From positions 1 through 64,000 of the IMG/VR virus record IMGVR_UViG_3300031420_000495: a stretch of DNA of 64,000 nucleotides; one strand, 5' to 3'. This document shows, piece after piece, positions 1 through 59,682 of the stretch. Position 1 is the stretch's first letter, and each line of letters begins with the position of its first letter. The position numbers and the translations under genes are program-made. The DNA is from a virus (Duplodnaviria > Caudoviricetes). The notes under the pieces were generated by a model. That model was not told the DNA's origin, did not search any database, and was given only the letters and a program-made list of their open reading frames with translations.

Positions 1-513
1 TTCACGAGCATAGCTCTTCAGCACGTGTGCTTCGCCCATGAACAGGATCAGCTTGAGTGGATCGAGTTTTTGTTTGAGACCTGGGATCGAGAGGTTAATG
101 TGAATGCCGGTGCTGGAGTTTGTTTCCAGATCGTTCTTTTCCATCCAGCGGAAGCACGACTTCAAATCGTCGAGTGCATCTGCAACAGGCAGCGGTGGCG
201 ATACGACTTCGATGCCGACGCCATTGTCTGGGCCCTGAACAGAACCGTCTGGAACGATTTTCCATTTGTCATCAGAGTTACCAACGACAACGTCCACGCC
301 AAGATAATCTTCAAGTGAGGCTTTCGCTTCTTCAGCCGTCTTCTTGAAGTCACCAATGTATTCTTCGTCCTTCACGATCAGGAACCCAGAAGTTTCTGGA
401 ACCCACATTTCGAGTTCGTAACCCAGCTTCGCGTCACCCAGTCGTTCGATCGCGCTGCTGAAGACACTCTTGGTCATGCGCGCTTCGTCAAGGAATTGTT
501 TGAATGTAATCAT
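1..513 (-). CDS. Putative amidoligase (Amidoligase_2 / COOH-NH2 ligase type), C-terminus cut by window edge; has capsid-targeting leader
   Basis: Not in ORF track. Hand translation from ATG at 513: MITFKQFLDEA...GYELEMW...WKIVPDGSVQGPDNGVGIEVVSPPL...TNSSTGIHINLS, matching DGS / E-V-V-S-P / S-x-G-x-H amidoligase motifs. ATG overlaps the TGA of the 510..1199 ORF. Confidence 0.75.
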   Translation of the reverse strand, partial: MITFKQFLDEARMTKSVFSSAIERLGDAKLGYELEMWVPETSGFLIVKDEEYIGDFKKTAEEAKASLEDYLGVDVVVGNSDDKWKIVPDGSVQGPDNGVGIEVVSPPLPVADALDDLKSCFRWMEKNDLETNSSTGIHINLSIPGLKQKLDPLKLILFMGEAHVLKSYARE

Positions 514-1199
514 GCGTGTACAAACGCCTTCTTTAAAATGTTCAGGAACTTTTCCCTGTTGTCATAATCGTTTGGCATTGGGATGACGTAGTAGTCATCG
601 CAATCGATCATGATTTCTACTGCGTCAGCCACAGCCTTATCCAGCCCGTTGATGGTGTAGCCGAGTTCATCCAGCTCTGCGTAGATCACGTCTTCATCTG
701 GCTTGCCATCAGAACCAATGTATTCTTTCTTGATGTTCCGTCCATCCTGCATTTTGTTCATGATGACATCATTGAACAGGTCACTTACTTTTGGCGACCA
801 AACATAGGTGAACTTTCCGATTGGCAATACAACACAAACCTGTCCATAAGTGTATGCAGTTTCACGGGCCGCTTCGCCGAAGCAGAAGACGGCTTCAGAA
901 CGAGCGCGAATGCCCATGTGATCCTCAAACCAATCATCGATGATCTTGTGCAACGGTCCAACAGTGTCCATTGGTTTACGATCCTTGCGAACTGTCTTAC
1001 GGAACACCGTGAACTTCTGATCGTTGCCTTCCACAGACATCTCACCAACAAGCTGGCCATACCCACTCATGCCACGAACGAGCAAACCATTCTGCTTGGA
1101 TTGTTTGAAGAAGTTGACGCAAGGCCCGTGAAGGAGTTCTTCGAATGTGAGCGGCTTAACTTCTTCCAGGAACTGCCTGAACGTTTTATTTTTTGTCAT
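510..1199 (-). CDS. Putative internal head protein, ART-like paralog 1
   Basis: Leader KTFRQFLEE; LVRG...RKDRKP..D...RARSEAVF...YG...VWSP...EIMI shared with 2514..3140 and 5061..5903. Confidence 0.55.
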   Translation of the reverse strand: MTKNKTFRQFLEEVKPLTFEELLHGPCVNFFKQSKQNGLLVRGMSGYGQLVGEMSVEGNDQKFTVFRKTVRKDRKPMDTVGPLHKIIDDWFEDHMGIRARSEAVFCFGEAARETAYTYGQVCVVLPIGKFTYVWSPKVSDLFNDVIMNKMQDGRNIKKEYIGSDGKPDEDVIYAELDELGYTINGLDKAVADAVEIMIDCDDYYVIPMPNDYDNREKFLNILKKAFVHA

Positions 1200-1698
1200 C
1201 TTTGGTCACGTACATTTCGCGACGCAGGTCACGTGGCGAAGTACCTTTTTTCTTTTGCGTACGCTTCGGAAGATCGAAGATGTACTCCGGGATGGAACCA
1301 ACGAAGTGCTTATCAGTCCGCTTGATGGCGTACGTCTCTGCACGGGTTGCTGCGTTCTCGAGGTAGCGCATGTCGACCAGCTCAACGTCCGAGAACTGGG
1401 CACGAACTTTCTGAATGTTGTCGATGGTGAAATCACGCATTTCCGAACGACGCTTGCCTGTCTTCGGATCAATGTCCGTCCAGACTTTCAGCTTGATCGT
1501 CATTGGCTTGCCGTCATACAGCTTGTCCAGCTTCGCCTGTTTCTCTGCCTTGAGACGATCACTTGCCGCCTGCAAAGCTTTCTGGTCTTCAGCTTTCTTC
1601 GCAGCGCGCTTCGCATCCTTCTCGGCACGCGTCATGTTCTTGCTGGTTTTGTTTTCGGCAAGATAGACCTGCTCGACAATTTCTTGAATCAGTTTCAT
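1186..1698 (-). CDS. Basic hypothetical protein with capsid-targeting-like leader (MKLIQEIVE)
   Basis: ATG at 1698 overlaps the gp15 stop (ATGA); the ORF-track start at 1923 lies inside gp15. Confidence 0.6.
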   Translation of the reverse strand: MKLIQEIVEQVYLAENKTSKNMTRAEKDAKRAAKKAEDQKALQAASDRLKAEKQAKLDKLYDGKPMTIKLKVWTDIDPKTGKRRSEMRDFTIDNIQKVRAQFSDVELVDMRYLENAATRAETYAIKRTDKHFVGSIPEYIFDLPKRTQKKKGTSPRDLRREMYVTKDDKK

Positions 1699-2483
1699 GG
1701 CATCTCGTTTGGTTGGGGTGGAATAGGTCCCGCTGGATCGCGGTCGGTAATTTCGATGGTACCGTACGCGTCGCCGAATGGCTGGAGGTTTCCGTCCTCC
1801 CCGACTTCGAGCGTTCCCATCGTGCTGAGGTCGCCAAGCTGAATGATAACCTTGCGGACCAAGTCGTCTTTGACACCCATCGGGATTCCAAGATAGATTG
1901 GCATGATGAAGGACAAAGTCCAAACGATCATGCGACGTTCAGTGCCTGATGGATAGTTCTCTTCGTTGCCGATGTCGGTCAACGTAATGTTGGTGATACG
2001 AGTCCAGTCAAACGGTCCATCCGACTTTTGAATCTGAATGTCCGGGTTGAAGAGAACGAGAATCTGTTCAAGAATTTGATGCATCTGCTGGGTGTTCGAC
2101 GCCCAGATCGAAAGCTCAAGTGTCATATCATACGGCACAGGCATGACGCGTTTGACAACGGTCAAGTCATCCGGAAATATTCCGCCCGTCTTCATTGTAA
2201 CATCTTGACGGACGAATCCCGAGGCACGACGACGTTCATCGTTTGGTGCAAGGCCTGTCATGTACGCAGACATAGTTGGCAGAGAGAAAACGCGGTTCTG
2301 TGTGTTGCCGGACATGATGCCTGCGACGACACGGTCCTTGTTACCGACGACAGTAGGCACGCTGATAAATTCAGGATCGCCGCATTCGCCTACACCGGTC
2401 TGTACTTGCAGTCCGTGGAAAAGCGAAACGAATTGCAGAATGTACGCACGCAGCTGGCCGTGATAAAAGTAATGGTTTATAAT
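1695..2483 (-). CDS. gp15: Tail terminator / tail sheath stabilizer (T4 gp15-like), probable ATT start
   Basis: (M)INHYFYHGQLRAYILQFVSLF...PYDMTLELSIWASN..Q..QILEQIL..FNP...ERRMIVWTLSF..PIYL; GAGGAG at 2497-2492, 8 nt before ATT; in-frame TGA at 2498-2496. Confidence 0.85.
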   Translation of the reverse strand: MINHYFYHGQLRAYILQFVSLFHGLQVQTGVGECGDPEFISVPTVVGNKDRVVAGIMSGNTQNRVFSLPTMSAYMTGLAPNDERRRASGFVRQDVTMKTGGIFPDDLTVVKRVMPVPYDMTLELSIWASNTQQMHQILEQILVLFNPDIQIQKSDGPFDWTRITNITLTDIGNEENYPSGTERRMIVWTLSFIMPIYLGIPMGVKDDLVRKVIIQLGDLSTMGTLEVGEDGNLQPFGDAYGTIEITDRDPAGPIPPQPNEMP

Positions 2484-2507
2484 TTTAGTTTCTCCTCAGA
2501 ATCCAGC

Positions 2508-2513
2508 TATTTA
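2508..2513 (-). promoter_or_regulatory. Late promoter TAAATA upstream of gp15
   Basis: TAAATA 25 nt upstream of the start; same hexamer precedes most structural genes in the window; gp55 homolog present. Confidence 0.7.
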
Positions 2514-3140
2514 TTAGGCAAAGCCGAGTGCTTGCTTCATTTGTTCCTGGTATTCGATTGGGAACGCGTAATAACGATCGCACTTAATCATGATTTCGTT
2601 GTTGGTCTTGACAGCCTGTGCCAGACCATCTGTCTGATAATGCTGTTTGTCAAGCCATGCACGTGCTTCTTCTGTCCATTGCTCTGAGGTCTTATCACCC
2701 CATGGAATATTCATCTTGCCGTACAGGTCACCAACTTCTGGCGACCACACATACTTGAATGCACCGATTGGGAAGACAACGCACGGAGTTCCGTAGTGTT
2801 TCAGTTCCGCAGTCGTTATCCTGTTGCCGCCAGCAAACATGCACTGCGAGCGTGCACGAATGCCGAACTTATCGTTGAACCATTCATCCAGAATTTCAGA
2901 ACGTAGGAGCGTGAAGTCAAGAGGCTTACGATCCTGGCGAACAGTTTTGATTCCATATTCCATCTCATTGCCTTCCGCATCGAGCGCAGTATGCGATTCA
3001 ATATCAGACAGGCCTTTCACACCACGGAGAATGAATCCTCCGTACTCTGATTCTTCGAGGAATTGTTTGCAGTCCCTGCGAATGAGGACTGCAAACGATA
3101 ATGCTTCTTGTTCACTGAGAAATTGCTTAAATGTAATCAT
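2514..3140 (-). CDS. Putative internal head protein, ART-like paralog 2
   Basis: Leader MITFKQFLSE; ILRG...RQDRKPLD...RARSQCMF...YG...VWSP...NEIMI. Confidence 0.55.
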   Translation of the reverse strand: MITFKQFLSEQEALSFAVLIRRDCKQFLEESEYGGFILRGVKGLSDIESHTALDAEGNEMEYGIKTVRQDRKPLDFTLLRSEILDEWFNDKFGIRARSQCMFAGGNRITTAELKHYGTPCVVFPIGAFKYVWSPEVGDLYGKMNIPWGDKTSEQWTEEARAWLDKQHYQTDGLAQAVKTNNEIMIKCDRYYAFPIEYQEQMKQALGFA

Positions 3141-5071
3141 GGAATCTTTTTGCTTCCTGGTGGTAATGTGGTATCCAGATTCAGGATGGCCAGCTGGCTT
3201 GGTCGGTGTGCTGAACGTTGAGCACGACGATCTGTTTCAACATACTGCCATGCATTCTTCACAATCGAGAACTTGTAAAGGCGTGCAGCGATATTTTGCT
3301 GTGGTGGATACTCGAGACGGAAAAACTCACCATCTTTACGTCCGGCAACGTCAGGCAGTTTGAATCCAGATTCGTACGGTGCACCATCTGGTGGCAGGCC
3401 GTCCTCAACGTACAGGCCGACCCCGTCATAGGACCCAGGCTGGTTGAAGCGGTTAGTGCCGGATGCTTGCTCACGAATGTTGGTTCCTTTTTCTGGAACA
3501 GCGCGAACTGCTTCGGCTTCGTTCGCTTCAGTGACAGTGAGCGGAGCGGTTTGAATCTGTTCAGTGCCTTCAAAGAATCGGAAGTCGTCAGTGATGTATT
3601 TCTGCGTGTCAACGGTTCCGAGCAGATCACGGTGCTCTTGACCAGGAATCAGCTGCTGTGCCTGGAAGCGGAAGATGACAGGTTGCCAGCCAGATGTGAA
3701 TCCGTCTGCTGCCCAACCGGTATCGATGACCTCAAGAAACTTACGAACCGGACGCAGGTTCTGGTCCCATTGCATTTCTGATGGAACTTCGAGGACGTCA
3801 CCAATTACGATTGGACGGCCAAGTGCGCGAACCATGTCAGCGAACGAGACCGTGAACGAATAGATGTCGGCCATCTGGAATCCGAACTTGGACAGATCGG
3901 ACACAGCGTCGAACGGTGTATATGCGGCACGAATCTGGATCGATGCTTTTGCGTAGTCGCGATCGCGATTTTCCATGAACAGCGGGTCCTGGATGTCATC
4001 CAGCCTCGTTGCCTGGAAGTCAAACAGCTCGAGCTTGTCGACGACCCATGGCTGATCTTTTGCGGCACCAGCAAACGACGTTGGCACAATCCTCCAGTAG
4101 CGCGAAGCAGCAGACTGTTTGATGCGGATCAGAGCCGGTGCATCGATGTTTGGCAGATTGACGACGTCAACCCGTTTCCATTCCATGTCGACCGGCACCA
4201 TGAACGAGTCACCTGGTTTGTACGGGACAGAGCTTGGGTTAATCGTGAATGAACCTTCAGGCGAGTTGAACTGTACGCCAACCGTTGCTTCGCCAAGAAT
4301 CGTGGATGTGCTGCTCCCAGCAAACATAACGGTAAACTTGGTTGCGGATTCAGCGAATAGCATAAAGGCACCGTGACGCGAGTTTATGCCCTGATGGAAC
4401 CCGCCGACACCGCCACTGGTGCGAGGAGGATTCGCAATGATCTTCAGTGGATCGACGCTGAAGTTACCATCGGAACGATCGACACGAACCTGCAGAGCGC
4501 GAGTGTTCGGGTCCGAACCCTGTTTGATTCGGAAACTCGTGATGTGCTGCGCGTCCGGCGCGCCTGGTGCATTCTCTGGTTGACCGAACGAGGTCATGCG
4601 AATGCCAAAGTCGTAACCAATGAACGCAGGCTTCTGAAGAACCTCAAGGCCCTTGAAGCTACTCGTCCAGCCTTCGGCCAGTTCGTCGAAGATGTTTGCG
4701 ACGCCAATACTCGAACCGATTGCACGACCAGCGCCAACCAAGTCGATCAGCTTGCCTTGTTCGTGGTTGCCGAGCAGCTTGAACACGTTGAGCGGTGCGC
4801 CAGAGATATTCAGGGACTCAGAGGCCAGTGCATCCTGATAAACGTTTTCGATTCCGAAGCAAGCATCCTGCGTGATGCGGAATGTACCACCACAGAATTC
4901 CGGAGGCACGTACGTTCCACCGCCTTGAGGCGGATTGGTAATTGTACCAGGATTCAGCGGCGGAATGTACGGTAAGCCAGAGTTCGGCGTGATTGGGCTG
5001 TTGAATGAACCTGCCGCGTCAACACATTCTGCAATGGTCGTGCGTGGTTGTGGGAGTTTATCAGTAGTCAT
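3137..5071 (-). CDS. gp14: Neck / head-completion protein (T4 gp14-like) with inserted extra domains
   Basis: ESLNISGAPLNVFKLLG N-terminal part and DLSKFGFQMAD..FTVSF...GRPIVIGDVLEVP C-terminal part; 644 aa, much longer than T4 gp14; located next to gp13 and gp15. Confidence 0.7.
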   Translation of the reverse strand: MTTDKLPQPRTTIAECVDAAGSFNSPITPNSGLPYIPPLNPGTITNPPQGGGTYVPPEFCGGTFRITQDACFGIENVYQDALASESLNISGAPLNVFKLLGNHEQGKLIDLVGAGRAIGSSIGVANIFDELAEGWTSSFKGLEVLQKPAFIGYDFGIRMTSFGQPENAPGAPDAQHITSFRIKQGSDPNTRALQVRVDRSDGNFSVDPLKIIANPPRTSGGVGGFHQGINSRHGAFMLFAESATKFTVMFAGSSTSTILGEATVGVQFNSPEGSFTINPSSVPYKPGDSFMVPVDMEWKRVDVVNLPNIDAPALIRIKQSAASRYWRIVPTSFAGAAKDQPWVVDKLELFDFQATRLDDIQDPLFMENRDRDYAKASIQIRAAYTPFDAVSDLSKFGFQMADIYSFTVSFADMVRALGRPIVIGDVLEVPSEMQWDQNLRPVRKFLEVIDTGWAADGFTSGWQPVIFRFQAQQLIPGQEHRDLLGTVDTQKYITDDFRFFEGTEQIQTAPLTVTEANEAEAVRAVPEKGTNIREQASGTNRFNQPGSYDGVGLYVEDGLPPDGAPYESGFKLPDVAGRKDGEFFRLEYPPQQNIAARLYKFSIVKNAWQYVETDRRAQRSAHRPSQLAILNLDTTLPPGSKKIP

Positions 5072-5903
5072 ACGCGTCCTGTCCCCAGTGATGCTCGATT
5101 TCTTCTGGGAAATTATCGAACTGTTCAGCCCATTCCATCAGGCGTTTCTTATCGTCTTCAGAAAGCCGGCTGCCGTGAGGAATGAATCCCACTTCGCCTT
5201 GAATCCAGACTTCGCCGTTTGCGTGTTGTTTACTTGCGTCAGCACCACGCGATTGACCGGCAAAGATGTCAGGCTTGACAAGGAATTCCCATACGTCATA
5301 CAGCGTTTCAAGACCGCGCTTGTGCATTGTTTCAACCAGCTCTTCGCCGCCATGCCAGTCACTGACTTCGGCACGAACGTCGTCAAGGTCATATTGCTTC
5401 ATGGTATCAACCAGTTCGTCATACGTCTTGATTCGCTTGTCAATGATGCTCTGCGTCATGCCGTTGAGTTCTTCGATCGTGATACCAATCGGAGCCAGTT
5501 CAGTTTCCCACAGATCGTTCACACCGCAGTAACCAACCTTTGCGTTATCGGAAAGAACCAACAGCGCTGCACCGCCAAAACCATCAGCAACGTCGCGGTC
5601 GTCTGTTCCGATGAAAGACAGGGAGCGTTTAGGCCAACCATCAAATGATGGATGATTGTCAATCCACAATGTATAGTTGTTGTGGGTGTTCGCGCTCTCG
5701 CGAGGTGTGATGCCCTCGCCTGCAGCGTTACCCAGACGCAAGCCTCTTGCTGCATCACCCGATCCGCCGCGATACAGGAATTGTTTGCCCGACAAATATC
5801 GGAGCGAGTTTTTGGTTGCCCACTTGATGAACGTATCGACGTCAACTACCTGCGTACGAGATTTGCGAGTGTCGTCAAGAAGGAATTGTTTGAATGTTTG
5901 CAT
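5061..5903 (-). CDS. Putative internal head protein, ART-like paralog 3 (divergent)
   Basis: Leader MQTFKQFLLD; FLYRG...PRES...PKRSLSFIGT...FG...NGEVWI. Confidence 0.5.
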   Translation of the reverse strand: MQTFKQFLLDDTRKSRTQVVDVDTFIKWATKNSLRYLSGKQFLYRGGSGDAARGLRLGNAAGEGITPRESANTHNNYTLWIDNHPSFDGWPKRSLSFIGTDDRDVADGFGGAALLVLSDNAKVGYCGVNDLWETELAPIGITIEELNGMTQSIIDKRIKTYDELVDTMKQYDLDDVRAEVSDWHGGEELVETMHKRGLETLYDVWEFLVKPDIFAGQSRGADASKQHANGEVWIQGEVGFIPHGSRLSEDDKKRLMEWAEQFDNFPEEIEHHWGQDAYDY

Positions 5904-5904
5904 G

Positions 5905-7833: not shown

Positions 7834-7883
7834 ATCGTTTTCCACGTAAGCTATCGAGCTATTTATGGAGATGGACAACCTGA

Positions 7884-7918
7884 TTCTTATTTGTCAGCTA
7901 ATGCTCTAATATTGCGTT
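7884..7918 (+). repeat. Dispersed AT-rich element, copy 1
   Basis: ttcttatttgtcagctaatgctctaatattgcgtt; near-identical copy at 60894-60929 and related copy at 41069-41105. Confidence 0.9.
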
Positions 7919-7939
7919 CGTGTTCAGGTAAATAGTTGC

Positions 7940-8272
7940 ATGAACTATATCCTCCACACATTCCGCCCGTCGGAAACAATTGATGCTGTGATCCGCCTGA
8001 AAGGCAGGCACAACTATACCCGCGAAGAAATCATTGTTCTTCGGCAACGCTTTAATGAGATGAACGGATTGATTGTCCCAAGGCCGGGACAAGTTTTCAA
8101 GATACCGCTGGAAGAGTCAATCCTCTTCCCCACGATAGTAGATGGCCCAGTAGTATCGGACCCAGAAGGAAATGGTCAGCAGCCAACCGATGACCAAGAA
8201 GCAGGCAATCCAGACGATCCACGGGAAGAACTCCCATCCTTGCCAGAATCCGGCGATCGCCCAGAAGATTGA
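7940..8272 (+). CDS. Small late protein, LysM-like N-terminal domain plus acidic tail
   Basis: HTFRPSETIDAVI...FNEMNG...PRPGQVFKIP resembles LysM; TAAATA at 7929-7934. Confidence 0.55.
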   Translation: MNYILHTFRPSETIDAVIRLKGRHNYTREEIIVLRQRFNEMNGLIVPRPGQVFKIPLEESILFPTIVDGPVVSDPEGNGQQPTDDQEAGNPDDPREELPSLPESGDRPED

Positions 8273-8362: not shown

Positions 8363-8371
8363 AATTTTTGA

Positions 8372-8731: not shown

Positions 8732-8743
8732 AAAATTTCCTAG

Positions 8744-28877: not shown

Positions 28878-29756
28878 TTATTTCAGGCCGGCGAGCTTGC
28901 GCATCTCGGCGAGCTGGTTGTTCTCAGCTGGCTTTGCTGCTGGTGCTGGCTTGTCGTCACCTGTGACCAGTTTATTGGCCGGGGTAGTCGACTCGGACAG
29001 AGGCTTCGCAACCGGAGCTGCGTCGTCTTCTTTCAGGATACGACCGATGAAGAATTTGTAGCTTTCTTCGAGACGTGCGGTGTCAACGTTCTTCAGAACC
29101 ATTGCCATCTGTTCACGCTTTTTGCCGGTAAGCGGCGACAGAACTTGTTCCATCTTTGCTTCACGGATCATTGTGTTGCGCTCTTCTTCGAGCTTTGCCA
29201 GTTGCGCTTCTGCATCTGCCAGTTTGCTTTCAGCTACGACGAGCTGGGACTGGACTGCATCTTCGTCAACATAGTGTGCCGCATACGTCGAAGCGAATGC
29301 TTCAAACATCTTGCGACCGAAATCGTTTTCGCGTACAACTGCGATGTCTTCTTTGAGTTCATCGAGCTCTGCAGCCAGGCGCATTTCAAAGAATGCGTCG
29401 ATCTTGTCAACGAGCGAATCGAGTTCTTCAGCGACAGTGCCTGCGAGTTTGTGCTTCTCTTCAACAAGCTTTTCAGCGTATTCGGCTTCGAGGTCACGGA
29501 AACGTTCGATGTCTCCCTTGAGTTCTTCAATCTCTTCGGACAGGGCCTTCGCTACAAAACCATCAACCTTGCTGATGAGTTCGTCGCGTTCGGTAATCCA
29601 TTGTCCAGCAAGCTCTGAACGTACTTCGCCCGAAACTTCTTCGCGCACTTGCGCTTTGAAAGCCTCAACGGAAGTATTCCATTGCTCAGAGATTTCAGCC
29701 TTGGTTTCTTCGCTGAGTAGCTCGGACTGAAGCAACTTTTTCAGAATTTCATCCAT
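28878..29756 (-). CDS. gp22: Prohead core scaffold protein
   Basis: Acidic coiled-coil (MDEILKKLL.SELLSEE) directly upstream of gp23. Confidence 0.88.
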   Translation of the reverse strand: MDEILKKLLQSELLSEETKAEISEQWNTSVEAFKAQVREEVSGEVRSELAGQWITERDELISKVDGFVAKALSEEIEELKGDIERFRDLEAEYAEKLVEEKHKLAGTVAEELDSLVDKIDAFFEMRLAAELDELKEDIAVVRENDFGRKMFEAFASTYAAHYVDEDAVQSQLVVAESKLADAEAQLAKLEEERNTMIREAKMEQVLSPLTGKKREQMAMVLKNVDTARLEESYKFFIGRILKEDDAAPVAKPLSESTTPANKLVTGDDKPAPAAKPAENNQLAEMRKLAGLK

Positions 29757-30123: not shown

Positions 30124-30197
30124 TTGAGTCTCCTTATGTTCTGTTGATGATGGGATTATTTATTGCATTTTGAATTGCAATTTTTCACAATCCAACA

Positions 30198-30470
30198 TCA
30201 ATCTTTTTCAAACAGCTCGTTGATTTCATCCGAGTCTGCATCGAGGTTCCAAAGCTTTGCCAGATACTTGCGAATCGACTTTTCTTCGCCTGACAGCGTC
30301 ACGCTGTCGTTACCGCCACCGCCTTTACCTGGGTTGCTGAGTTTGATGCCAGCCTTTTCGAGGTTTGCAAGTTCTGACTTGTAGCCATTGAACTGCACAG
30401 TGACTTTCACTTCGTCAAGTTTACGTTGTGGCAGCCCTGCTGCCTTGAGTGCTTCATTCAGTGTCAGCAT
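30198..30470 (-). CDS. Small putative internal head protein, shared leader MLTLNEALKAAGLP
   Basis: Start at 30470 by leader identity with the two neighbours. Confidence 0.75.
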   Translation of the reverse strand: MLTLNEALKAAGLPQRKLDEVKVTVQFNGYKSELANLEKAGIKLSNPGKGGGGNDSVTLSGEEKSIRKYLAKLWNLDADSDEINELFEKD

Positions 30471-30795
30471 TTTGTCCTCGTTTGTTTGGTAGGTCACTCT
30501 TGAAGCGGGCGATGAACAACATCTTGCTGCGCTCGTCATACTGCATAAAGCCGGAACGGATTTTGATTGCGAGGCCATCCATCGGTACGCCCATAGCTTC
30601 AAGCATGAACGCAACGATTGGGTTATCATTCTTGATACCGAAGACTTCGCCCTTGAGTTCAATGCCGCTGTCAGATGTCAGTTTGACAACTGTTGCCTTC
30701 GACATATTCAACTTGCTGGATGCTTCCAGAAGTTTGTCGAAGCTGCCAGACGTTGTGAGTCCGGCATATTTGAGGGCTTCATTGAGTGAAAGCAT
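30454..30795 (-). CDS. Small putative internal head protein, shared leader MLSLNEALKYAGL
   Basis: Leader repeat; coupled to neighbours. Confidence 0.75.
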   Translation of the reverse strand: MLSLNEALKYAGLTTSGSFDKLLEASSKLNMSKATVVKLTSDSGIELKGEVFGIKNDNPIVAFMLEAMGVPMDGLAIKIRSGFMQYDERSKMLFIARFKSDLPNKRGQNADTE

Positions 30796-31052
30796 TACTC
30801 TTCTCCGCGGTCCATTGAACGTTGGAGTTCGCCGATGTCGTCCTCGATTTTATTCAGACTCTTGACGATGTCATCAACGTAAGAAGCGTCACCGCCTTCA
30901 CGTTCAATTGCATCGCGCAAATTGCCAGTGAAAACCTTTTGCAGGGTTTCGATTTTGCCCATTGCTTCGCGAACACGTGACACAGCACTGGCTTCGTTGA
31001 GTTGTTGCGTTGGCAGACCTGCTGCCTTGAGGGCTTCGTTGAGTGAGAGCAT
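30795..31052 (-). CDS. Small putative internal head protein, shared leader MLSLNEALKAAGLP
   Basis: Leader repeat; start overlaps gp21 stop. Confidence 0.75.
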   Translation of the reverse strand: MLSLNEALKAAGLPTQQLNEASAVSRVREAMGKIETLQKVFTGNLRDAIEREGGDASYVDDIVKSLNKIEDDIGELQRSMDRGEE

Positions 31053-31678
31053 TATTTCTGTTTCCCTTTAGATGCGAGCACGTCCAAGAACGCCTTCATT
31101 TCTTTCTTGAAGTATTCCTGCGCTTTCGGATCGTGGACCATTGCTTCGGCCAGGGTCAGAACCTTGTTATTGTTCATTGCTTCTTGAACAACGTTTGGAT
31201 ACGCGTCAGGAGCCGATGGCTGCGAGACGATGTCGACCGTGACGAAAGCGAAGTCAGCAACCTTGCCCGACTCGTTGACGTTACCGGTACCGCGGGACGA
31301 AACACCGAGACGGACACCGCCTTCGATCAGACCCTTCGCGATGTTGCCTGATGGCGTGTTGAGGAGTTTCATCTTGCCGATTGCATTGTTGCCATCCATG
31401 CGAACTTCAGTAATCGCGTGGGACACGTTTGCCAGGTTGATCGACAGGACGTCCGGGTGATTCAGCTCGCCCAGAATGTAGTGACCTGAAGCGATACGCT
31501 TTGCAGCCTCGTCAACAGCTTTCGAGATTTCGGAAAGTGGATATGAACGGCCGTTGCCGTTCACAAGTTCAGCCTGCATCATGATACCGTTGAGATAAAG
31601 ATCGCCGCTGGCGGTCTTCATCTCTGTCAGGTGGGATTGAGCTGGGCTAAGGTGTTCAGAGAGAAGTTGGAACTTCAT
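31052..31678 (-). CDS. gp21: Prohead core protease
   Basis: YLNGIMMQAE..N.NGRSYP...GELNHP...LLNTPSG.IAK.L...GV.LGVSSRG.G; TATAAATA at 31719-31712. Confidence 0.95.
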   Translation of the reverse strand: MKFQLLSEHLSPAQSHLTEMKTASGDLYLNGIMMQAELVNGNGRSYPLSEISKAVDEAAKRIASGHYILGELNHPDVLSINLANVSHAITEVRMDGNNAIGKMKLLNTPSGNIAKGLIEGGVRLGVSSRGTGNVNESGKVADFAFVTVDIVSQPSAPDAYPNVVQEAMNNNKVLTLAEAMVHDPKAQEYFKKEMKAFLDVLASKGKQK

Positions 31679-31719
31679 GTTTATGATCCTTTTGTTAGAG
31701 GCTTTGTCCCATATTTATA

Positions 31720-33420
31720 TCAAGTTGCTGCTGGAGCTGGCGTTTCTGGCGCTGGAGTTGCCGTAGGCGATACGTCATCATCCGCTGCTGCCGGAGCAGT
31801 ATCACCTGCTCCACCAAAGAATCCGCCACCGGTATCAGCCGTGTCGCCCATATCGTCATCGCCTCCCATGTCGTCCATACCACCGCCACTATCCGTGCCG
31901 CTAGCAGTTCCGCCATCAACCGTGATTGCTTCACGGTTGTCGTAAACAGCAGGGTCATACATCTGTTGCAGTGGTGGAACGTTGGCGTTCTCGAGGATGC
32001 CGCGTTCTTCTTTGAGCATGACTTCGTTCATCTGGATTTCGTCGTCGGTCAGGCCGAGGTAACGTTTCTGGATGAAGCGACGGGACAGAGTTTTCTCTGC
32101 AGCAATGTTGTTGTACGAGCTGATCAGGTCGGCGTCAAGCGCTGCCTGACGATACAGTGCGAAGTTAGCTGGGTCAGGAAGTTTGATCTTGAAGATTTCG
32201 TCATCGATCTTCAGGCCAACAACCTTCAAATAAATCTTGAACTCTTCGTCGAAGATTTCGTCCAGGCGATCCTGGAGACGACGAATGAACTGCGCGAAGC
32301 GAAGTTCTTCGATGTACGCGATACCAACCTTGCCGTCGTTGTACTGTGCACCGGCTCCGTCTGTACCTGTCATGTACGAGGTCGGGATACGAAGACCGCG
32401 GAAGATTTTGTCCTGGAACAGTTTGATAAGGCCAGTACCGAAGTCCTCAGTACCGCCCGGCAGAGTTTCTACACGGGAACCGCGACCAGCAGCCGTTACC
32501 GGGAAGAACAGGTCTTCCTGGATTGAGGTTGCATCGTATTGGCCGTCGACAATTTCCTTGCCGTTGTTCTGTCCTGGCGTACGCTTCTGGCGCATCTCAT
32601 TCTTGATCTGCTCCAGGTATTGCTTGACACGCTGTGGTGGCATGTTACCAACGTCGACGTAGAAGACGCGACGTTCAGGTGCACGGACGATACGGTAAAT
32701 GATGACAGCGTCTTCCAGCATAGCCAGCTGGCGGTAGACGCGGTGGATTGGACGCAGGACAGAGTTACCGAACGGAGCCGAGTCGCCCATGTCGTCCGAC
32801 AGCGTGAAGTGAATCATCGCTGCGGCCGGGACGATTTCCAACGTTTCAGTCTTCATGCCGTATCCGCTCGAAGCATTGCCTGGGCGTTTCAAGTGATACG
32901 CAATCTTGTTGCCGAGCTGGTCGATTTCGATACCGTGAACGAGCGACGGGTCGACAGCAGTCCATTGCTTCGTGTCCGACAGCTTGCGGAAGAAACAGTC
33001 GCCGTACTTAATCATCTGGCGCGCGATCGAGAAGATGCGCTTGTTGAATTGCTGGGTGTTCGACCACTGACGAACAGCCTGACGAAGCGTCACGGCAGTT
33101 GTGTCACTGATTTCCTGGTTGTCTTCTTTCTGGTATACAATCTCGAATGGCAGTCCTGTCTTCTCGTCCTTGCCTGACATTTCTTCTGCGATGATGTCAA
33201 GCGAACGGAAAATATCGATGTCCGCGTCCATTGCGTCGTATTGTTTGTACGAAGCCTGACGCGAACCGAGACCACGAAGAACTTGTGAGTACCACTGGAC
33301 TGATGTCATCGATGACAAGTCGGTGGTGCGGGGATCGTATGCATCAATCGACAGCGTCGTGTAAAGTTGCTTACGCGACGCCGGAGTGATGATCCTCCAC
33401 CAATTTGTTAGTTGTGCGAT
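31720..33420 (-). CDS. gp20: Portal vertex protein, probable ATC start
   Basis: YDAMDAD.DI...LDIIAEE...MLEDAVIIYRIVRAPERRVFYVDVGNMP...EDLFFP...GRGSRVETLPGG; reading frame open to 33432 with AAGGAG at 33433-33428. Confidence 0.95.
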   Translation of the reverse strand: MAQLTNWWRIITPASRKQLYTTLSIDAYDPRTTDLSSMTSVQWYSQVLRGLGSRQASYKQYDAMDADIDIFRSLDIIAEEMSGKDEKTGLPFEIVYQKEDNQEISDTTAVTLRQAVRQWSNTQQFNKRIFSIARQMIKYGDCFFRKLSDTKQWTAVDPSLVHGIEIDQLGNKIAYHLKRPGNASSGYGMKTETLEIVPAAAMIHFTLSDDMGDSAPFGNSVLRPIHRVYRQLAMLEDAVIIYRIVRAPERRVFYVDVGNMPPQRVKQYLEQIKNEMRQKRTPGQNNGKEIVDGQYDATSIQEDLFFPVTAAGRGSRVETLPGGTEDFGTGLIKLFQDKIFRGLRIPTSYMTGTDGAGAQYNDGKVGIAYIEELRFAQFIRRLQDRLDEIFDEEFKIYLKVVGLKIDDEIFKIKLPDPANFALYRQAALDADLISSYNNIAAEKTLSRRFIQKRYLGLTDDEIQMNEVMLKEERGILENANVPPLQQMYDPAVYDNREAITVDGGTASGTDSGGGMDDMGGDDDMGDTADTGGGFFGGAGDTAPAAADDDVSPTATPAPETPAPAAT

Positions 33421-36666: not shown

Positions 36667-36689
36667 ATAAATACTGATGTATATTTATC
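36667..36689. promoter_or_regulatory. Overlapping divergent late promoters
   Basis: TAAATA on + at 36668-36673 and on - at 36687-36682. Confidence 0.75.
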
Positions 36690-37760: not shown

Positions 37761-37808
37761 TGATAAATATGCTGGTACAATTAGAAACCCTCACAGCGAG
37801 AACAACAA

Positions 37809-38360
37809 ATGAAAGTAACTGAACTACTCGAAGCAACCAGTCGCATTGTCGACCTGCGCGACCCAGACGATGCGCCTGGAGCTGTTGATCGTGAAGCCGC
37901 AGCGCGTGCAAAAGGCAAGAGCGATCAAGAAGCCGCAGTCGAGAATCTGAACAAACTCGTGTCGAAATACAAACTCGGTGGCGGCTGGAAAGTCGGAACG
38001 AGTTCGTCGATCGTCGGCACGTTCATCATGCCGGATCACAAGGGTGGAGCAGCGAAGGCCAAGTTCAAGACGAATGCTGGTGCAGCTGAAGCAACGTTGT
38101 GGGTGGCCGGTCGTTACGACGATCTTGTCCTCTCGCTGTATGATGTCGACATGTCGCGCGACCAGAAGAATGCAGCACTGGCGAAAATGAAAGAACTGTT
38201 GCCGGGCGTCTACTTCATGAAAGTACAATCCGACGATCGTCGCGATTTCAAATCCGTGTCATTCCACTTCGGTTATCCGTCGACATTCTCTGACAGCAAG
38301 AAATTTGCTGGCTTGAAGAAGTTCTTCGATTACCTGAAGAAAGAAGCGCAGTTCTCATGA
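37809..38360 (+). CDS. Putative internal head protein (leader MKVTELLE)
   Basis: Late TAAATA at 37764-37769; capsid-targeting-like leader. Confidence 0.6.
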   Translation: MKVTELLEATSRIVDLRDPDDAPGAVDREAAARAKGKSDQEAAVENLNKLVSKYKLGGGWKVGTSSSIVGTFIMPDHKGGAAKAKFKTNAGAAEATLWVAGRYDDLVLSLYDVDMSRDQKNAALAKMKELLPGVYFMKVQSDDRRDFKSVSFHFGYPSTFSDSKKFAGLKKFFDYLKKEAQFS

Positions 38361-40189: not shown

Positions 40190-41044
40190 TTAGATACCGA
40201 GAACGTCGAAAATTTCGTCCGCGTCGATTCCTTCTACTTTGGCTTTCTTGACGAGGGCTTTCAAGTCTGCCTTCGTAAGTTCACCACTGTATTCTTTGCC
40301 GGTGGTTTGGATCGCGTTCACGACAGCTTGAGGCAGTGTGCTGGCGTTCAGCTTCTTGACGATGTTGGCCACAGTCAGTGCATTCGCATTACGCTGGCGA
40401 GACTTCTCGTCATAGTGAGCGATGGTAGCTTCGTTGACCATGCCGGCCATCTTCTTGATCTTGTCAAGCTTGCTGTCGAAACGGGTTGCCCAGGACATGA
40501 TTGACTTGAAGAAAGCTTTCGCACGTTCAATGATACCTTCTTCGAGAACTTCCTCGTTGACTTCTTTCGAAACAGTCAGGCGTTTGATCGGCGGCTTCGG
40601 TGGTACGATCGTCGTATACTTTTCAGTAATCATGTCGACGCGGCTTTGCAGCTCGTCTGGAATGAGTGCTGACAAAGCAGCGATGACTTTCTCATAGTCA
40701 ATCTGTTTTGTCGGTTCACCCTTCTGGACTTCCTTGGCCATCGTCAGCGTGAACTGCGCTGTTTCAACGACACGTGTAAGTACAACGTCTTCGGCATTGA
40801 AGTAGTCTTGGATGTCGCCCTTCAGACGAGTGTTGAGCGCATCGTGCTCTTCCTTCATCTTCTTGATGCTGGCGTCCAGGCGAGCGTAACGCCGGGCGAG
40901 CTTTGTCATGCTGGCGGATTCGGTTCCGCTCAGCTTTGCGGTCACACGGTCAAGTGCGCCTTTGACTTGCTTCTCAGTGTACTTCGCGCTGTCTTTGCGA
41001 GCCTCGAGTAAGACGAGATGTTCTTTGAATGTCGGATAGTTCAT
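40190..41044 (-). CDS. Putative internal head (poly)protein (leader MNYPTFKEHLVLLE)
   Basis: Late TAAATA at 41078-41073; internal V/L-x-E sites (VNEEVLEE, MVNEA). Confidence 0.65.
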   Translation of the reverse strand: MNYPTFKEHLVLLEARKDSAKYTEKQVKGALDRVTAKLSGTESASMTKLARRYARLDASIKKMKEEHDALNTRLKGDIQDYFNAEDVVLTRVVETAQFTLTMAKEVQKGEPTKQIDYEKVIAALSALIPDELQSRVDMITEKYTTIVPPKPPIKRLTVSKEVNEEVLEEGIIERAKAFFKSIMSWATRFDSKLDKIKKMAGMVNEATIAHYDEKSRQRNANALTVANIVKKLNASTLPQAVVNAIQTTGKEYSGELTKADLKALVKKAKVEGIDADEIFDVLGI

Positions 41045-43846: not shown

Positions 43847-43847
43847 A

Positions 43848-44339
43848 TCATGATCCAGTCTTTTTCACATACTGATTCGCGAAGTAGTTTGCCTTCTCGA
43901 CTGTGTACGTAAATTCGTCGCCATTGTCCTGACGGAGCATGAAGTCGCCTTTGGACAACTTGACAGTTTGTCCACCGGCTGCATCAGGGTCAGCTGTTGC
44001 GCTCAGCGTAACTTTGACAGGATCGCCATTGTACCGGAACGCATCGTAGACGTCGCCAGAACGGTATGTCACAAAACCTTCGGCATCAGGCTGCTGATTC
44101 GGACGCATCGGAGCGAAAGACGCATCAAGGTCTTCTTGACTCATTGTACCATAAGTCTTGCGTTTCCCTCGATCATCATACAACACCTCGTACGTTCCAC
44201 GCTTGCCTTCGATCGGGCGAACGTAGTAGACGGTTGTCGTGATGAACTGTGCAGAATCGCCTTCGTTCTCAGACCACAGTTCTTCTGCGGTCCGAGTCGG
44301 AATGGGTTCTTCAAACAGCTTGATTTCGGATAATTTCAT
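43848..44339 (-). CDS. Putative internal head protein (leader MKLSEIKLFE)
   Basis: Leader; late cassette. Confidence 0.6.
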   Translation of the reverse strand: MKLSEIKLFEEPIPTRTAEELWSENEGDSAQFITTTVYYVRPIEGKRGTYEVLYDDRGKRKTYGTMSQEDLDASFAPMRPNQQPDAEGFVTYRSGDVYDAFRYNGDPVKVTLSATADPDAAGGQTVKLSKGDFMLRQDNGDEFTYTVEKANYFANQYVKKTGS

Positions 44340-44833
44340 TCGTGGTATTTCCTGCCTTCACGACGAGCAGCATTCTTTTCACGCCAAGCTTCGCCTGCGT
44401 CCTTGTTGTCGAAAATGTCTCGCGCTTCTTTGTATGCATCCATGTACGGCTTGACGCTGTCCTTGCCGAACGACTTTTCGATCTGTGCTTTGGACAATGC
44501 TGGATGTCCCTTTGAACCTGCCGACTTCGCCAGCTTGATCGCAGCACGATCAGCACCACCGGCTTCGTTCAGGTCTTGATCTTCTTTCATCGCGGCCGTT
44601 TTCTGGGCAATGCGGGAACGACGATCATCGCCTTCTGCATCTTTGCCATCGAACTCGCGCTTGCCTTCTTTGTAGCCTTCGGAATATGGACCCCATGCTT
44701 GAGGGCCCAGATTCTTTTCGATGGTCTCACGTTTCGCGATTGGCTTACCAGCACGGCCGGTAGAACGGCCAAGGTCCATTGCTTTGCGTTCTTGGCCGCT
44801 CAGTGCTTCGAGAAGTTCTTGTAACAGTTTCAT
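44336..44833 (-). CDS. Putative internal head protein with two tandem ~65-aa repeats (leader MKLLQELLE)
   Basis: Repeats separated by DLNEA. Confidence 0.7.
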   Translation of the reverse strand: MKLLQELLEALSGQERKAMDLGRSTGRAGKPIAKRETIEKNLGPQAWGPYSEGYKEGKREFDGKDAEGDDRRSRIAQKTAAMKEDQDLNEAGGADRAAIKLAKSAGSKGHPALSKAQIEKSFGKDSVKPYMDAYKEARDIFDNKDAGEAWREKNAARREGRKYHE

Positions 44834-44850
44834 ATTGTTCCTCCAGTAAA

Positions 44851-57500: not shown

Positions 57501-58071
57501 CATCGACCCGTCCGTCACCAATATCCACGATGTGTATGTAATGACACGTGGTTACTATGACAACGTAATCAACTTTGTCCGTGGTCTCTCCCCGTATGCC
57601 CCGACTGCACCTACTCCGCTGGAACTCCGCAATGCGTACGGATACTTGCTGAACAACAAGATGCTGTCCGACACGGTCGTCCTGCATCCTGGCAAGATTC
57701 GTCTGCTCTTCGGTGGATTGGCTGAACCGCAACTCCGTGCAAGGTTCAAGGTTGTGCGTAGCCAGACCGGTACGCTCACCAATGAACGGATCAAGGAAGA
57801 AGTGTTGAACGTTATCAACACGTTCTTCGACATCGATGGTTGGGACTTCGGAGATACCTTCTATGCTACGAAACTGATTTCGTTGATTCACCAGCGTTTG
57901 CCAGCGGACATTGCATCCGTTGTGCTCGTGCCGGTATACTCGACGAACTCTTTCGGTTCATTGTTCACGGTGGAATCCGGCTTCGACGAGATTCTTCAGT
58001 CAGCTGCAGAACTGTCCGACATTGAAGTGGTCGAAGCATTGACCTCCAACGTTCTTCGCCAGTCGAAATAA
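54523..58071 (+). CDS. gp6: Baseplate wedge gp6-like
   Basis: SYDFDSIK..L..Y....YPE.FNDYIESSE...LE.FAYI...LAYR.D....ENF..TA.R..SI.RLA.LISY; ETIEHIR..AP..YY.QNRMV..QDY; TAAATA at 54492-54497. Confidence 0.9.
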   Translation: MALRTTYSAETWEKIYQAFSEVSFVSYDFDSIKQSLIDYTRTYYPEVFNDYIESSEYIAMLEMFAYIAEQLAYRVDMVAHENFITTAQRKQSILRLAKLISYKATRNIPVRGLVKINSVTTSERVLDSRGTDLAGLTIVWNDPNNVNWKEQFILVMNRVLNNRFGQPSKTFQIGDVVMDLYSLKNSPASARNGVFPFTAAAGQDTYPMEIVPADLDANGPFEREPDLTSPMSLIYANDGIGDGSDYTGFLGYVKQGSLTRIDYNIEDRLPDRRIDFDPLNINHTDVWVQKIENDRIAERWTQVDTISEQNLVFNELRDTRKKFEVDTRESDAITVIFGDGDFSDMPQGLFRFWMRQSANRSIVIQKNKVQGQTFGFTYTSTAGNTESCSMTFSLTTTLQNGSGTETIEHIRRSAPATYYAQNRMVNGQDYNTYLLKDPSIIREKAINRTFAGQPKHIDWNDASGTYENIKLFGDDASMRYSLGLESQTTSVSGQALIDSVIEPLLSSSGVINMMLHISASDPLMQGVVSSPRRKFIEDNRGGKYNAYGGSFVSTILGSTADGSLKEKTTIQGLIDRHWYGEPLEYVLDANGQVMARIPDPDLNPKDDSRIYAATVPRTIDGVNKFPPGDIGSGLQPIAEQDDFALRYHRYTAMIGDGNIVINTNPAFATILPNEVWTIEVAADGRTLYVRSNLRGTLPTGSIGDAYQLKSSTSSDSTLFFTVTSTSLEAGDSFILETNGTATYPKLRCKVNLNGWWEVLGTGKLKYYEGGQLKEGDELLFTTDDSSDDLRQHGWIIFVHKLRQAPSNNIIGYEVHNRTLKLSVTSPNTKFWYNSVNQILDNDTKNRVYDNIRILGSNFNASGELLKQAQKYDVIGAVKDKDGIVDLHSLEVVPTDLLQEDESGDLVPDRLLQYETFSGGATPSYEYFRLDNPTYIFKATDTALIGQAKAASWTPGSFVDRSLTYGRRQRMPAVGSADTGLDFMWQHFSPYTNIIDPSVTNIHDVYVMTRGYYDNVINFVRGLSPYAPTAPTPLELRNAYGYLLNNKMLSDTVVLHPGKIRLLFGGLAEPQLRARFKVVRSQTGTLTNERIKEEVLNVINTFFDIDGWDFGDTFYATKLISLIHQRLPADIASVVLVPVYSTNSFGSLFTVESGFDEILQSAAELSDIEVVEALTSNVLRQSK

Positions 58072-58074
58072 TGG

Positions 58075-58129
58075 CATGCAATTCTCGGGTTGGTGCGTAG
58101 AATACACACATCTAACCCAACCCGAGAAT
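58075..58129 (+). promoter_or_regulatory. Early-type promoter variant CATGCA-N17-TAGAAT-N5-CATCT within a perfect 13-bp inverted repeat
   Basis: Arms 58081-58093 and 58117-58129. Confidence 0.7.
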
Positions 58130-58132
58130 AAA

Positions 58133-58471
58133 ATGAACGATCTGCACGTTGTCTTCAGCCGTAATTGCATGGTTGAGAAAAATCCCCAGCTGTTCTCCCT
58201 CGAAACCAAGACCTTCATCCCACTGCCGGAAGCGCTCGCCGAGTTCGACAACGGCACCGTTCTGAAGAAGAACGCAGACGGTACCTATGTCGAGAATCCG
58301 CTCACGGACGACGAGCGCGACGACTTCTCGGCTGACGAATCGATTCATGATGCTATGAACGATTACATCGTCAAGTCCTGCACCGGCGGCACGAACTACG
58401 ATGCCGCATGGTTCGCCTGCGACTTCAACCCGTTCATGGAAGCATTCACCACGTTCCACTTCGAGGTATAA
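58133..58471 (+). CDS. Hypothetical protein
   Basis: First gene of the island inside the baseplate cluster. Confidence 0.7.
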   Translation: MNDLHVVFSRNCMVEKNPQLFSLETKTFIPLPEALAEFDNGTVLKKNADGTYVENPLTDDERDDFSADESIHDAMNDYIVKSCTGGTNYDAAWFACDFNPFMEAFTTFHFEV

Positions 58472-58476
58472 AACCC

Positions 58477-58524
58477 TGTACAAACTCCGTAGTTGCCGGT
58501 ATAATGCATCCATCAACTACGGAG
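58477..58524 (+). promoter_or_regulatory. Early promoter TGTACA-N17-TATAAT-N5-CATCAAC with perfect 11-bp inverted repeat covering the RBS
   Basis: Arms 58485-58495 and 58514-58524 (ends in ACGGAG). Confidence 0.85.
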
Positions 58525-58532
58525 CAGTCAAC

Positions 58533-58718
58533 ATGGAAGATACGCACAAGGATGTGATCGAGCTGCATGAAGCAGCAACGAAGCTGCTGAACCATCTCGA
58601 AGATGTGCTGGACGAAAAGAACTTCGACGCCATCTCCGCGAAGCTGTGGAACGATGTCAGCATGTTCCTCGTGATGCGCGGCATCAAGGTGGAAACTCCG
58701 AACATCAAGGAGGCGTGA
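58533..58718 (+). CDS. Small hypothetical protein
   Basis: RBS ACGGAG; stop overlaps HNH start. Confidence 0.7.
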   Translation: MEDTHKDVIELHEAATKLLNHLEDVLDEKNFDAISAKLWNDVSMFLVMRGIKVETPNIKEA

Positions 58719-59140
58719 TGGGCCGTCGTAAAGGTTTGTACGTACACTACCAATACATCTCGCTGGAAGAGGGTCTTGCTGCAGTCAATGCAACCCTTCA
58801 CGAGAAGCCGAAAGCGAAACGTCACCGTGTTGGCGATTACGAGGTTCACACCACCGGTCTACGCCTTCGTGTCTTCGCCATCAAAGGCATCTGTTGCTAT
58901 CTCTGTGGGCTGGAAGCCACACAGTTCTCGATCGATGACATGCCGAACGGCCGTCAACCTCACATGAACCTGTGGGGCGAGAAGGATGGTAAACCAATGT
59001 TATTCACGCACGATCACGTCATCGACCGTGCCAAAGGTGGTGCAGATGCCATCGAGAATGCAGAACCTTGTTGCACGAATTGCAACTGGGAAAAGAATCT
59101 TCGCGAGAACTTCAGCCACGCATACAAGGGAAAAGCTTAA
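58718..59140 (+). CDS. HNH endonuclease
   Basis: CCYLCG...FTHDHVIDRAKGG.D...N..PCC..CN..K. Confidence 0.88.
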   Translation: MGRRKGLYVHYQYISLEEGLAAVNATLHEKPKAKRHRVGDYEVHTTGLRLRVFAIKGICCYLCGLEATQFSIDDMPNGRQPHMNLWGEKDGKPMLFTHDHVIDRAKGGADAIENAEPCCTNCNWEKNLRENFSHAYKGKA

Positions 59141-59682
59141 CGCTGGCGGTGTCTCAAAACTTCGGTGGAGGCAATGACTTCCCCATGGTCGGCAAGACCG
59201 TGGGTAAGAACAACCTTGGTTCCCTTTGGCAGATTGAACACATGCTTTTCGCGGGCGCCATTGTTACTGTAGGACGATTCGTTTTCGTCACCTTTGGTGG
59301 TCATTGACATCCATTTGAATCGCGTGTCAGAACGCGGGTAAGGTTCGTTCGTGAAACGGTAAAGGGTAGTATCTTTTTCCAATGGTGTTTCGCAGCTGTG
59401 CAGCACGGAATCGATTGTGTCACAGTTGAGACGGTATTTTCCATCAGGGCCTTTCATGCCATCGGAAACCCATTCGTCAAGTTCTTCTTCCCGTTCCTCT
59501 TCACTGGCGTTCATGTACCGTTTCACGCCTTCAAGAAACACTGGATCATCTGACCAGTCCTTCATACCGATCTGGAGGTATTCATAATTTAAGTACAGAA
59601 GTCTGCCCCATGCTTGGATCACAAACCTCTGAACCATGTTATAATTACCACCAGCCTCGTTGAGGATTTCATACAGTTTCAT
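59137..59682 (-). CDS. ADP-ribosyltransferase (Alt/ModB/VIP2-like, R-S-E) with capsid-targeting-like leader MKLYEILNE
   Basis: TTLYRF, WMSMTT, VFNLPKGTK, DHGEVI; late TAAATA at 59711-59706, SD AAGGAA. Confidence 0.75.
   Translation of the reverse strand: MKLYEILNEAGGNYNMVQRFVIQAWGRLLYLNYEYLQIGMKDWSDDPVFLEGVKRYMNASEEEREEELDEWVSDGMKGPDGKYRLNCDTIDSVLHSCETPLEKDTTLYRFTNEPYPRSDTRFKWMSMTTKGDENESSYSNNGAREKHVFNLPKGTKVVLTHGLADHGEVIASTEVLRHRQR

Follow-up and report, generated by a model that had tools for sequence, protein, structure and literature searches.

An uncultured phage is represented by a contig of 257,406 bp (IMG/VR record IMGVR_UViG_3300031420_000495), of which the first 64 kb (64,000 nucleotides, hereafter the window) contain late genes whose proteins begin with a short shared leader. 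The major capsid protein, portal and protease place the phage in the T4 superfamily, and the leaders are probably propeptides equivalent to the capsid-targeting sequence (CTS) of T4, carried by late proteins that would be docked on the head core, cleaved by gp21, retained in the head and probably ejected. As a tag very like the head-loading tag of T4 is present on about a dozen late genes that are otherwise unrelated, an unusually large protein cargo is probable. In the proposed mechanism, the leaders would act as N-terminal propeptides by which late proteins, once synthesised, attach to the prohead core; a gp21-type protease (31052-31678) would remove them by cutting after Glu in [L/I]-x-E, and the mature proteins would be retained next to the DNA inside the head and probably exit together with it on infection. 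Core binding, the exact cut site and a location in the head rather than the tail are suggested by analogy, and injection into the host is predicted from the T4 precedent alone.

Leader sequences

Genes on the contig were called with a script based on codon usage and ribosome-binding sites, resulting in 358 genes. The initial annotation had listed 15 window genes with leaders, and all 15 N-termini were found with their coordinates and strands correct, two of them (MTKNKTFRQFLEE at 1199 and MNYPTFKEHLVLLE at 41044) with a few extra residues ahead of the motif. The rule offered for them, a leader ending in L/I/V-x-E/D, was not discriminating and did not rise above chance; of 359 genes, 52 (14.5%) had [LIVFM][LIVF]x[ED] within their initial 14 residues, compared to 9.3% for any internal window and 12.6% for windows starting at an internal Met. 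Two narrower motifs were defined, class A (M-x-TFKQFL-x-E, scanned as TF[KR][QE][FH]L) and class B (MK-[LIV]-x-E-[LI]-L-x-E, scanned as MK[LIV]x(1,2)[EQ][LIV][LIVT]x?[ED]). The idea of a shared T4-type address tag had good, though indirect, support for 11 of the 15 genes (about 20 in the contig) and was not sustained for the MLSLNE trio and MEQISE. The listed genes are given below, with ART-like denoting a predicted resemblance to the ADP-ribosyltransferase (ART) fold.

1-513, minus strand: class A leader MITFKQFLDE; Amidoligase_2 protein (PF12224, E 1.3e-8)
510-1199, minus strand: class A leader MTKNKTFRQFLEE; ART-like-fold paralogue, family A2; orthologues begin MKTFKQFLEE and MTKTFRQFLED
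1186-1698, minus strand: class B leader MKLIQEIVE; protein of unknown function; the orthologue in one relative begins MKISELLINE
2514-3140, minus strand: class A leader MITFKQFLSE; ART-like-fold protein, reference member of family A2; homologues keep the leader
5061-5903, minus strand: class A leader MQTFKQFLLD, with Asp at position 10; distant ART-like relative (hhalign 98.2%)
10468-11205, minus strand: class B leader MKLDELLD, with an Asp end; protein of unknown function; the orthologue has MKLDEILD
30198-30470, 30454-30795 and 30795-31052, minus strand: three ML[ST]LNEALK paralogues between the protease and scaffold genes
37809-38360, plus strand: class B leader MKVTELLE; own late-type promoter motif; its one homologue (49% identity) begins MKISDILSE
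40190-41044, minus strand: class A variant leader MNYPTFKEHLVLLE; protein of unknown function; six-frame motif match
43848-44339, minus strand: looser class B leader MKLSEIKLFE; coupled with 44336-44833
44336-44833, minus strand: class B leader MKLLQELLE; coupled with 43848-44339; downstream of gp46/gp47-like genes
48780-49481, plus strand: weak member, MEQISE; cytidylyltransferase-like (PF01467 at its cut-off)
59137-59682, minus strand: class B leader MKLYEILNE; own late-type promoter motif; homologues with class A or B leaders

The MLSLNE trio did not qualify as independent cargo; these are small paralogues situated where T4 has gp67 and gp68, and they are most likely small head-core proteins. 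MEQISE (48780) was set aside as a weak Alt-like singleton, the only gene of its type.

Five copies of class A were present in the window and seven in the contig, with six and about 13 copies of class B, respectively. A six-frame scan of the 257-kb contig with the class A pattern gave five matches, all at gene starts and all within the window, and two looser copies begin genes at 116401 and 227810. Class A was found at 7 of 359 N-termini and at none of 1531 internal Met positions (column-shuffle mean 0.01). Class B had 12 six-frame matches in the contig, 11 of them at gene starts, and occurred at 11 of 359 N-termini compared to none of the 1531 internal Met positions (Fisher p 1e-8; shuffle mean 0.1). 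Both classes lie far above chance, although their p-values are optimistic, since the motifs were framed with the data already in view. When all N-termini were compared in an unbiased way, 12 pairs reached a BLOSUM score of at least 28 against none in the internal control, and these pairs recovered classes A and B together with the MLSLNE trio. Clustering at a score of 22 was noisy and was dropped, as only scores of at least 26 separated N-termini from controls. The twelfth class B match is an 11-codon stub, MKLLNELLEMK followed by a stop (26663-26698, minus strand), which may be a remnant of a tagged gene or a chance occurrence. The leader was absent from all 36 genes in 12.1-27.4 kb compared to its presence on 11 of 58 genes elsewhere (Fisher p 0.006), in agreement with the earlier remark that the early region lacks it.

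BLAST among 30 candidates, with 15 residues trimmed, revealed one paralogue family only, with four members (510-1199, 2514-3140, 87579-88148, 88148-88756), two carrying class A and two carrying class B leaders. Since classes A and B occur inside one paralogue family, they behave as two forms of one signal. Leader codons differ synonymously among copies in the genome, indicating that selection acts on the peptide, and an A-rich second codon (AAA) is common.

The first 10 residues of T4 internal protein (IP) III suffice for packaging, and mutagenesis of IPIII has linked residues 4 and 7 chiefly with targeting, and residues 8 and 10 with processing (PMC9026906). Class A (F4, F7, L8, E10, compared to Y4, F7, I8, E10 in T4 IPIII) agrees with T4 IPI, IPII and IPIII at all functionally mapped CTS positions. 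To fit these positions class B has to be shifted by one residue, and its nearer counterpart is T4 gp24. In the T4 record, IPII and IPIII begin MKTYQEFIAE, IPI MKTFKEF, gp24 MAKINELLRE, gp21 MNEPQLLIE, gp67 MEGLIE and Alt MELITE. As a control, the same DNA pattern in T4 recovered ipI, ipII, ipIII, ORF 61.1 and one internal site in alt. T4 ORF 61.1 (AF158101 18966-19130; 54 residues, uncharacterised) adjoins the primase gene in an early-gene neighbourhood and begins MKTFKEFIKE, a full CTS-like leader ending in I-K-E.

Conservation in relatives and association with virions

Among 36 database homologues of the 2514-3140 protein, most begin MITFKQ[FY][LI]xE, down to 27% identity, and the leader is the best-conserved segment. 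The family of 5061-5903 also keeps its leader, with FL[ASK]E then SRT in most relatives and LLDD in this phage. Homologues of the class B protein 59137-59682 carry either form (MKVSDLFE, MKFSDFLNE, MITFKTFLKE, MNITFKEYLTE, VSFKQFLLE and others). Two metagenomic relatives share the same late operon (gp13, a 644-aa protein, gp15 and sheath) with six and seven class A genes inserted, and in both the structural genes between them (gp13, gp15, sheath) are without the tag.

By capsid protein, RsoM2USA (a Ralstonia phage; 48% identity) and XacN1 (a Xanthomonas phage; 46%) were the nearest cultured relatives, ahead of Rak2-like jumbo phages; megablast of the head module against GenBank phages gave no match. 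All seven occurrences of TFK[QE][FY] in RsoM2USA were at gene starts. RsoM2USA ORF89 (MKTFKQFLSE) and ORF132 (MKTFKQFLNTLME) have computed masses of 28.56 and 76.62 kDa, and both belong to the ten abundant virion bands that were identified through LC-MS/MS, at 28.57 and 76.64 kDa (PMC8504454). The overlap of tagged RsoM2USA genes with the ten bands had a hypergeometric p of 0.008. In phage Atu_ph07, a tandem array (gp53-gp63; 39.5-50.6 kb) that includes homologues of the ART-like family of the window contains ten genes beginning M[RK]WxQLxE and one beginning MRLFQLLE. The computed masses of the array match those of gp53-gp64 in Table S5 of PMC6102473 within 0.01 kDa, and all of the array proteins were detected in purified virions with 3-31 peptides (PMC6102473 Table S5). 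The Atu_ph07 leader is another version of this type of leader, specific to its own lineage.

Leader-like starts were also seen on RsoM2USA ORF87, 88, 90, 254, 256 and 258, the neighbours of ORF89 and ORF257, which were both detected by mass spectrometry (MKLSEASD, MKLHEISE, MSFKTFLE, MTTFKEYLLE, MKFSDYILE, MRLKQFLME; one of them on a P-loop NTPase).

Prohead protease and distribution of cleavage sites

The head module of the window contains the following genes.

27529-28845, minus strand: major capsid protein, T4-type (Pfam Gp23, E 6e-85)
28878-29756, minus strand: gp22-like scaffold, with 14 [LI]xE sites in 292 aa
31052-31678, minus strand: T4 gp21-type prohead protease (Peptidase_S77, E 2.4e-28)
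31720-33309: T4-type portal

The ELNHP and GVSSRG motifs of the protease, containing the catalytic His and Ser, are invariant compared to T4 gp21, and its N-terminus MKFQLLSE aligns with MNEPQLLIE of T4 gp21 (QLL[IS]E). The sites that had been pointed out in the head proteins themselves (gp23 MLKE39, gp22 PLSE255, gp21 QLLSE8) were all present. The capsid protein has all four of its [LI]xE sites in residues 1-39, the last (MLKE39) just ahead of the conserved mature domain, and none in the mature protein (residues 40-438, 399 aa), for which about two would be expected from its own composition and about five from the contig-wide density. This distribution looks like selection against self-cleavage sites.

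A similar scarcity was observed in the cargo. The mature parts of 21 tagged proteins contain 0.57 [LI]xE per 100 residues compared to the usual 1.17; when sets of 21 genes of similar size were drawn at random, no more than 0.18% had a density as low. No depletion was seen in the tagged proteins for the controls [LI]xD, [VM]xE and [FYW]xE. The scarcity of [LI]xE fits proteins that must survive beside a protease specific for L/I-x-E. Ala occupies the P1' position, directly after the leader Glu, in 9 of 19 cases compared to a background of 8.8%. This distribution of sites, together with the T4 precedent, suggests that the leaders would be cleaved after their terminal Glu.

Late-type promoter motif

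The sequence ATAAATA, which is the T4 late promoter TATAAATA minus its first base, has 58 copies in the contig, and 47 of these, correctly oriented, lie upstream of a gene start at a distance of 12-69 nt (within a span of 80 nt). Copies in the window are listed here.

Minus strand: ATAAATA at 7860-7866, 12093-12099, 30157-30163, 31712-31718, 36682-36688 and 59706-59712
Plus strand: ATAAATA at 36667-36673, 37763-37769, 48750-48756 and 60970-60976

The copy at 7860-7866 heads the operon running from 7833 down to 1, home of five tagged genes. The motif also heads the 12065-10468 unit and the protease/core unit, and it directly precedes 37809, 48780 and 59682. Altogether it is found upstream of genes or operons holding 12 of the 15 listed genes, and no copy was found ahead of any of the 36 small genes in 12.1-27.4 kb. 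The position and orientation of the motif suggest that it acts as the core of a late promoter.

Identity of the cargo

The predicted cargo of the window consists of at least three ART-like-fold proteins, one amidoligase and about six proteins without a recognisable family. Searches of the cargo genes against Pfam, PHROGs and PADLOC gave no function for most. The amidoligase gene is truncated by the contig start (the protein has 392-405 aa in relatives), and its orthologues begin MITFKQFLSE and MITFKQYLDE. Continuation of this open reading frame (1-513) across the contig ends was considered and rejected; the frame opens into an unrelated helicase-like frame, and the junction was therefore treated as an assembly break rather than a real gene. 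No informative relatives of 40190-41044 were found in the ESM Atlas.

The model of 2514-3140 was confident, with a predicted local distance difference test score (pLDDT) of 92. Among solved structures it best matched 2aua (Z 5.7), whose function is unknown; many chains of the ADP-ribosyltransferase fold came next, at Z 2.6-3.7. The model of 5061-5903 (pLDDT 88) matched 2aua (Z 5.2), Arr (Z 4.8), diphtheria toxin, PARPs and DarT. For both models together, the ART-fold chains comprised Arr, DarT, diphtheria and cholix toxins, PARPs and CopC/OspC3, all at weak scores (Z 2.6-4.8). For the ART-like model, Foldseek against the PDB returned nothing significant and the ESM Atlas returned unnamed viral clusters only; a profile search of PDB sequences with the ART-like family gave chance-level matches only, and there was no Pfam match. 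The 5061-5903 family is a distant relative of the 2514-3140 family (hhalign 98%), and both have, in the same order, an invariant Arg (YRG), a Ser (RS) conserved in at least 90% and an invariant Glu. In the 2514-3140 family these are Arg39, Ser98 and Glu182. Both families are likely candidates for ART-like enzymes. In both AlphaFold models the first 10-12 residues are disordered (pLDDT 36-47) and lie outside the fold.

Neighbouring genes and assembly

The window proteins, taken here from the 257-kb assembly, are also on record in a longer contig of 375,534 bp. A homologue of gp15, the tail sheath stabiliser, is located in the window at 1695-2483 (minus strand) and aligns with its relatives from an ATT codon at 2483. 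An AGGAG site is situated 8 nt upstream of this codon, and relatives have ATG at the same position (MINHYYYDGQ compared to IINHYFYHGQ). The gene probably starts at ATT, in which case its first 41 residues would be missed by gene callers restricted to ATG, GTG and TTG.

Evaluation of alternative explanations

Several observations weigh against the leaders being CTS propeptides of head cargo. The genes at 44339, 44833 and 41044 have near-consensus motifs only (GTAAATA or xTAAATA), and 44339 and 44833 follow gp46/gp47-like genes. In T4, gp46 and gp47 are not late genes. Two leaders (5903 and 11205) end in Asp, as does the orthologue of 11205. In T4, Asp at position 10 blocks cutting and not targeting, gp21 cutting after L/I-x-E (PMC9026906), and the proteins of 5903 and 11205 may be targeted and left uncut. 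Several tagged genes are located in the neck/tail operon (gp13, gp15, sheath) and not in the head module. XacN1 has no gene with an N-terminal TFK[QE][FY], its single TFKEF match being internal, and this form of the tag is therefore not universal in the clade. The RsoM2USA and Atu_ph07 proteomes are of whole virions, heads and tails together, with N-termini unmapped. Finally, class B leaders are short, low-complexity sequences, and both motifs were defined post hoc.

The same proteomes and gene neighbourhoods would also suit leaders that are propeptides of structural or assembly parts of the virion (core, neck, whisker or tail), trimmed by the head protease or another enzyme, on proteins that are not delivered effectors and would serve in assembly alone or remain with the particle. 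Many tagged genes are interspersed with those for gp13, gp15 and sheath, the head-core module includes the MLSLNE trio, and the proteomes of Atu_ph07 and RsoM2USA show virion association only. However, the cargo has enzyme-like folds (ART-like, amidoligase) that are atypical of structural parts, and it varies between relatives while the tag is kept, as with the internal proteins of T4. The depletion of [LI]xE also implies a compartment common to the cargo and the prohead protease, and we regard a purely structural role as unlikely.

It is very improbable that class B and the weaker members arose by chance or from N-terminal composition (MK starts, amphipathic helices), leaving class A as the only real family. 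The lack of enrichment of the loose motif and the many noise pairs produced by unbiased N-terminal clustering at moderate thresholds would favour this explanation, but it does not account for a class B pattern with 11 of 12 six-frame matches at gene starts and none at 1531 internal Met positions, for the alternation of classes A and B within two protein families, or for 12 N-terminal pairs against no control pairs at a BLOSUM score of at least 28. Selection of the gene start at the level of nucleic acid, as a translation-initiation enhancer or as a DNA box for recombinational cassette swapping with no targeting role, is likewise very improbable; the common A-rich second codons (AAA) favour initiation, but the copies differ by synonymous codons with the residues kept, the kept residues are those mapped as functional in the T4 CTS, the preference for a Glu-Ala junction and the depletion of internal sites are protein-level features, and different phages have different tag versions, each with LxE at its end. 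In support of a nucleic-acid role, Repoila and colleagues in 1994 reportedly discussed, for T-even phages, conserved CTS DNA on the flanks of variable IP genes.

Implications

A broader proposition, which to our minds could equally hold or fail, is that T4-superfamily jumbo phages use a readable, lineage-specific N-terminal code, here in two interchangeable forms, to load at least 20 proteins per genome into the head, including families of ART-like enzymes and an amidoligase. If this were true, sequence alone would suffice to list the injected effector sets of thousands of uncultured phages, and such lists could be searched for functions in host takeover and anti-defence. Proteins carried along with the phage DNA act ahead of any phage gene expression; those injected by T4 include the restriction-enzyme inhibitor IPI* and Alt, a modifier of the host RNA polymerase. 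With a reliable tag, many hypothetical proteins encoded by giant phages would become a defined set of candidate first-strike effectors, and the tag would offer a route for loading foreign proteins into non-coli phages. The prediction is directly testable, since the cultured phage RsoM2USA bears the same tag on abundant virion proteins. In the literature searched, no paper was found that describes these leader sequences or an expansion of the CTS in T4-related jumbo phages.

Comparison with known systems

The CTS principle and the diversity of internal proteins in T-even phages are already established (PMC3012670, PMC9026906), and the leaders described here, whose cleavage, head location and injection are predicted, form a real and well-supported instance of that mechanism at a greater scale.

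Among giant phages, those related to phiKZ offer a parallel in their head proteases (phiKZ gp175 and SPN3US gp245; PMC9026906, PMC7411985). As proposed here, these phages have large sets of head proteins that are cut after Glu by a gp21-related protease, and many of these proteins are ejected. Unlike the leaders of the window, the phiKZ-type sites are S/A-x-E, often far from the N-terminus, and the proteins do not share a 10-residue leader.

The propeptides of T4 gp24 and gp21 resemble class B, which has the K-[IV]-x-E-L-L core of gp24 and the terminal LxE, although class B leaders here are on non-shell proteins. No paralogue of gp24 (vertex) was found when sought in the contig.

T4 Alt is a packaged ADP-ribosyltransferase with a short gp21-cleaved propeptide (MELITE), to be compared with the ART-like candidates bearing a leader in this phage; MEQISE at 48780 also resembles MELITE. 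However, homology to Alt was not detectable in sequence, and support for the ART fold is weak here (Z 2.6-5.7). Alt has 682 aa compared to about 200-280 aa for the proteins described here, with three family members in the window and five in the contig.

A close likeness is to the T4 CTS itself, where unrelated proteins likewise bear at their N-terminus a tag of about 10 residues, with aromatic residues at positions 4 and 7, an aliphatic one at 8 and Glu at 10, often followed by Ala, in a phage with a gp21-type protease; 12 of the 15 listed genes here are also behind a T4-like late promoter motif. The differences are that this phage, known from its genes alone, has two interchangeable forms of the tag, tagged genes that are spread over neck, tail and other late operons, a cargo much of which looks enzymatic, and about 20 tagged genes in 257 kb compared to three (plus 61.1) in T4.

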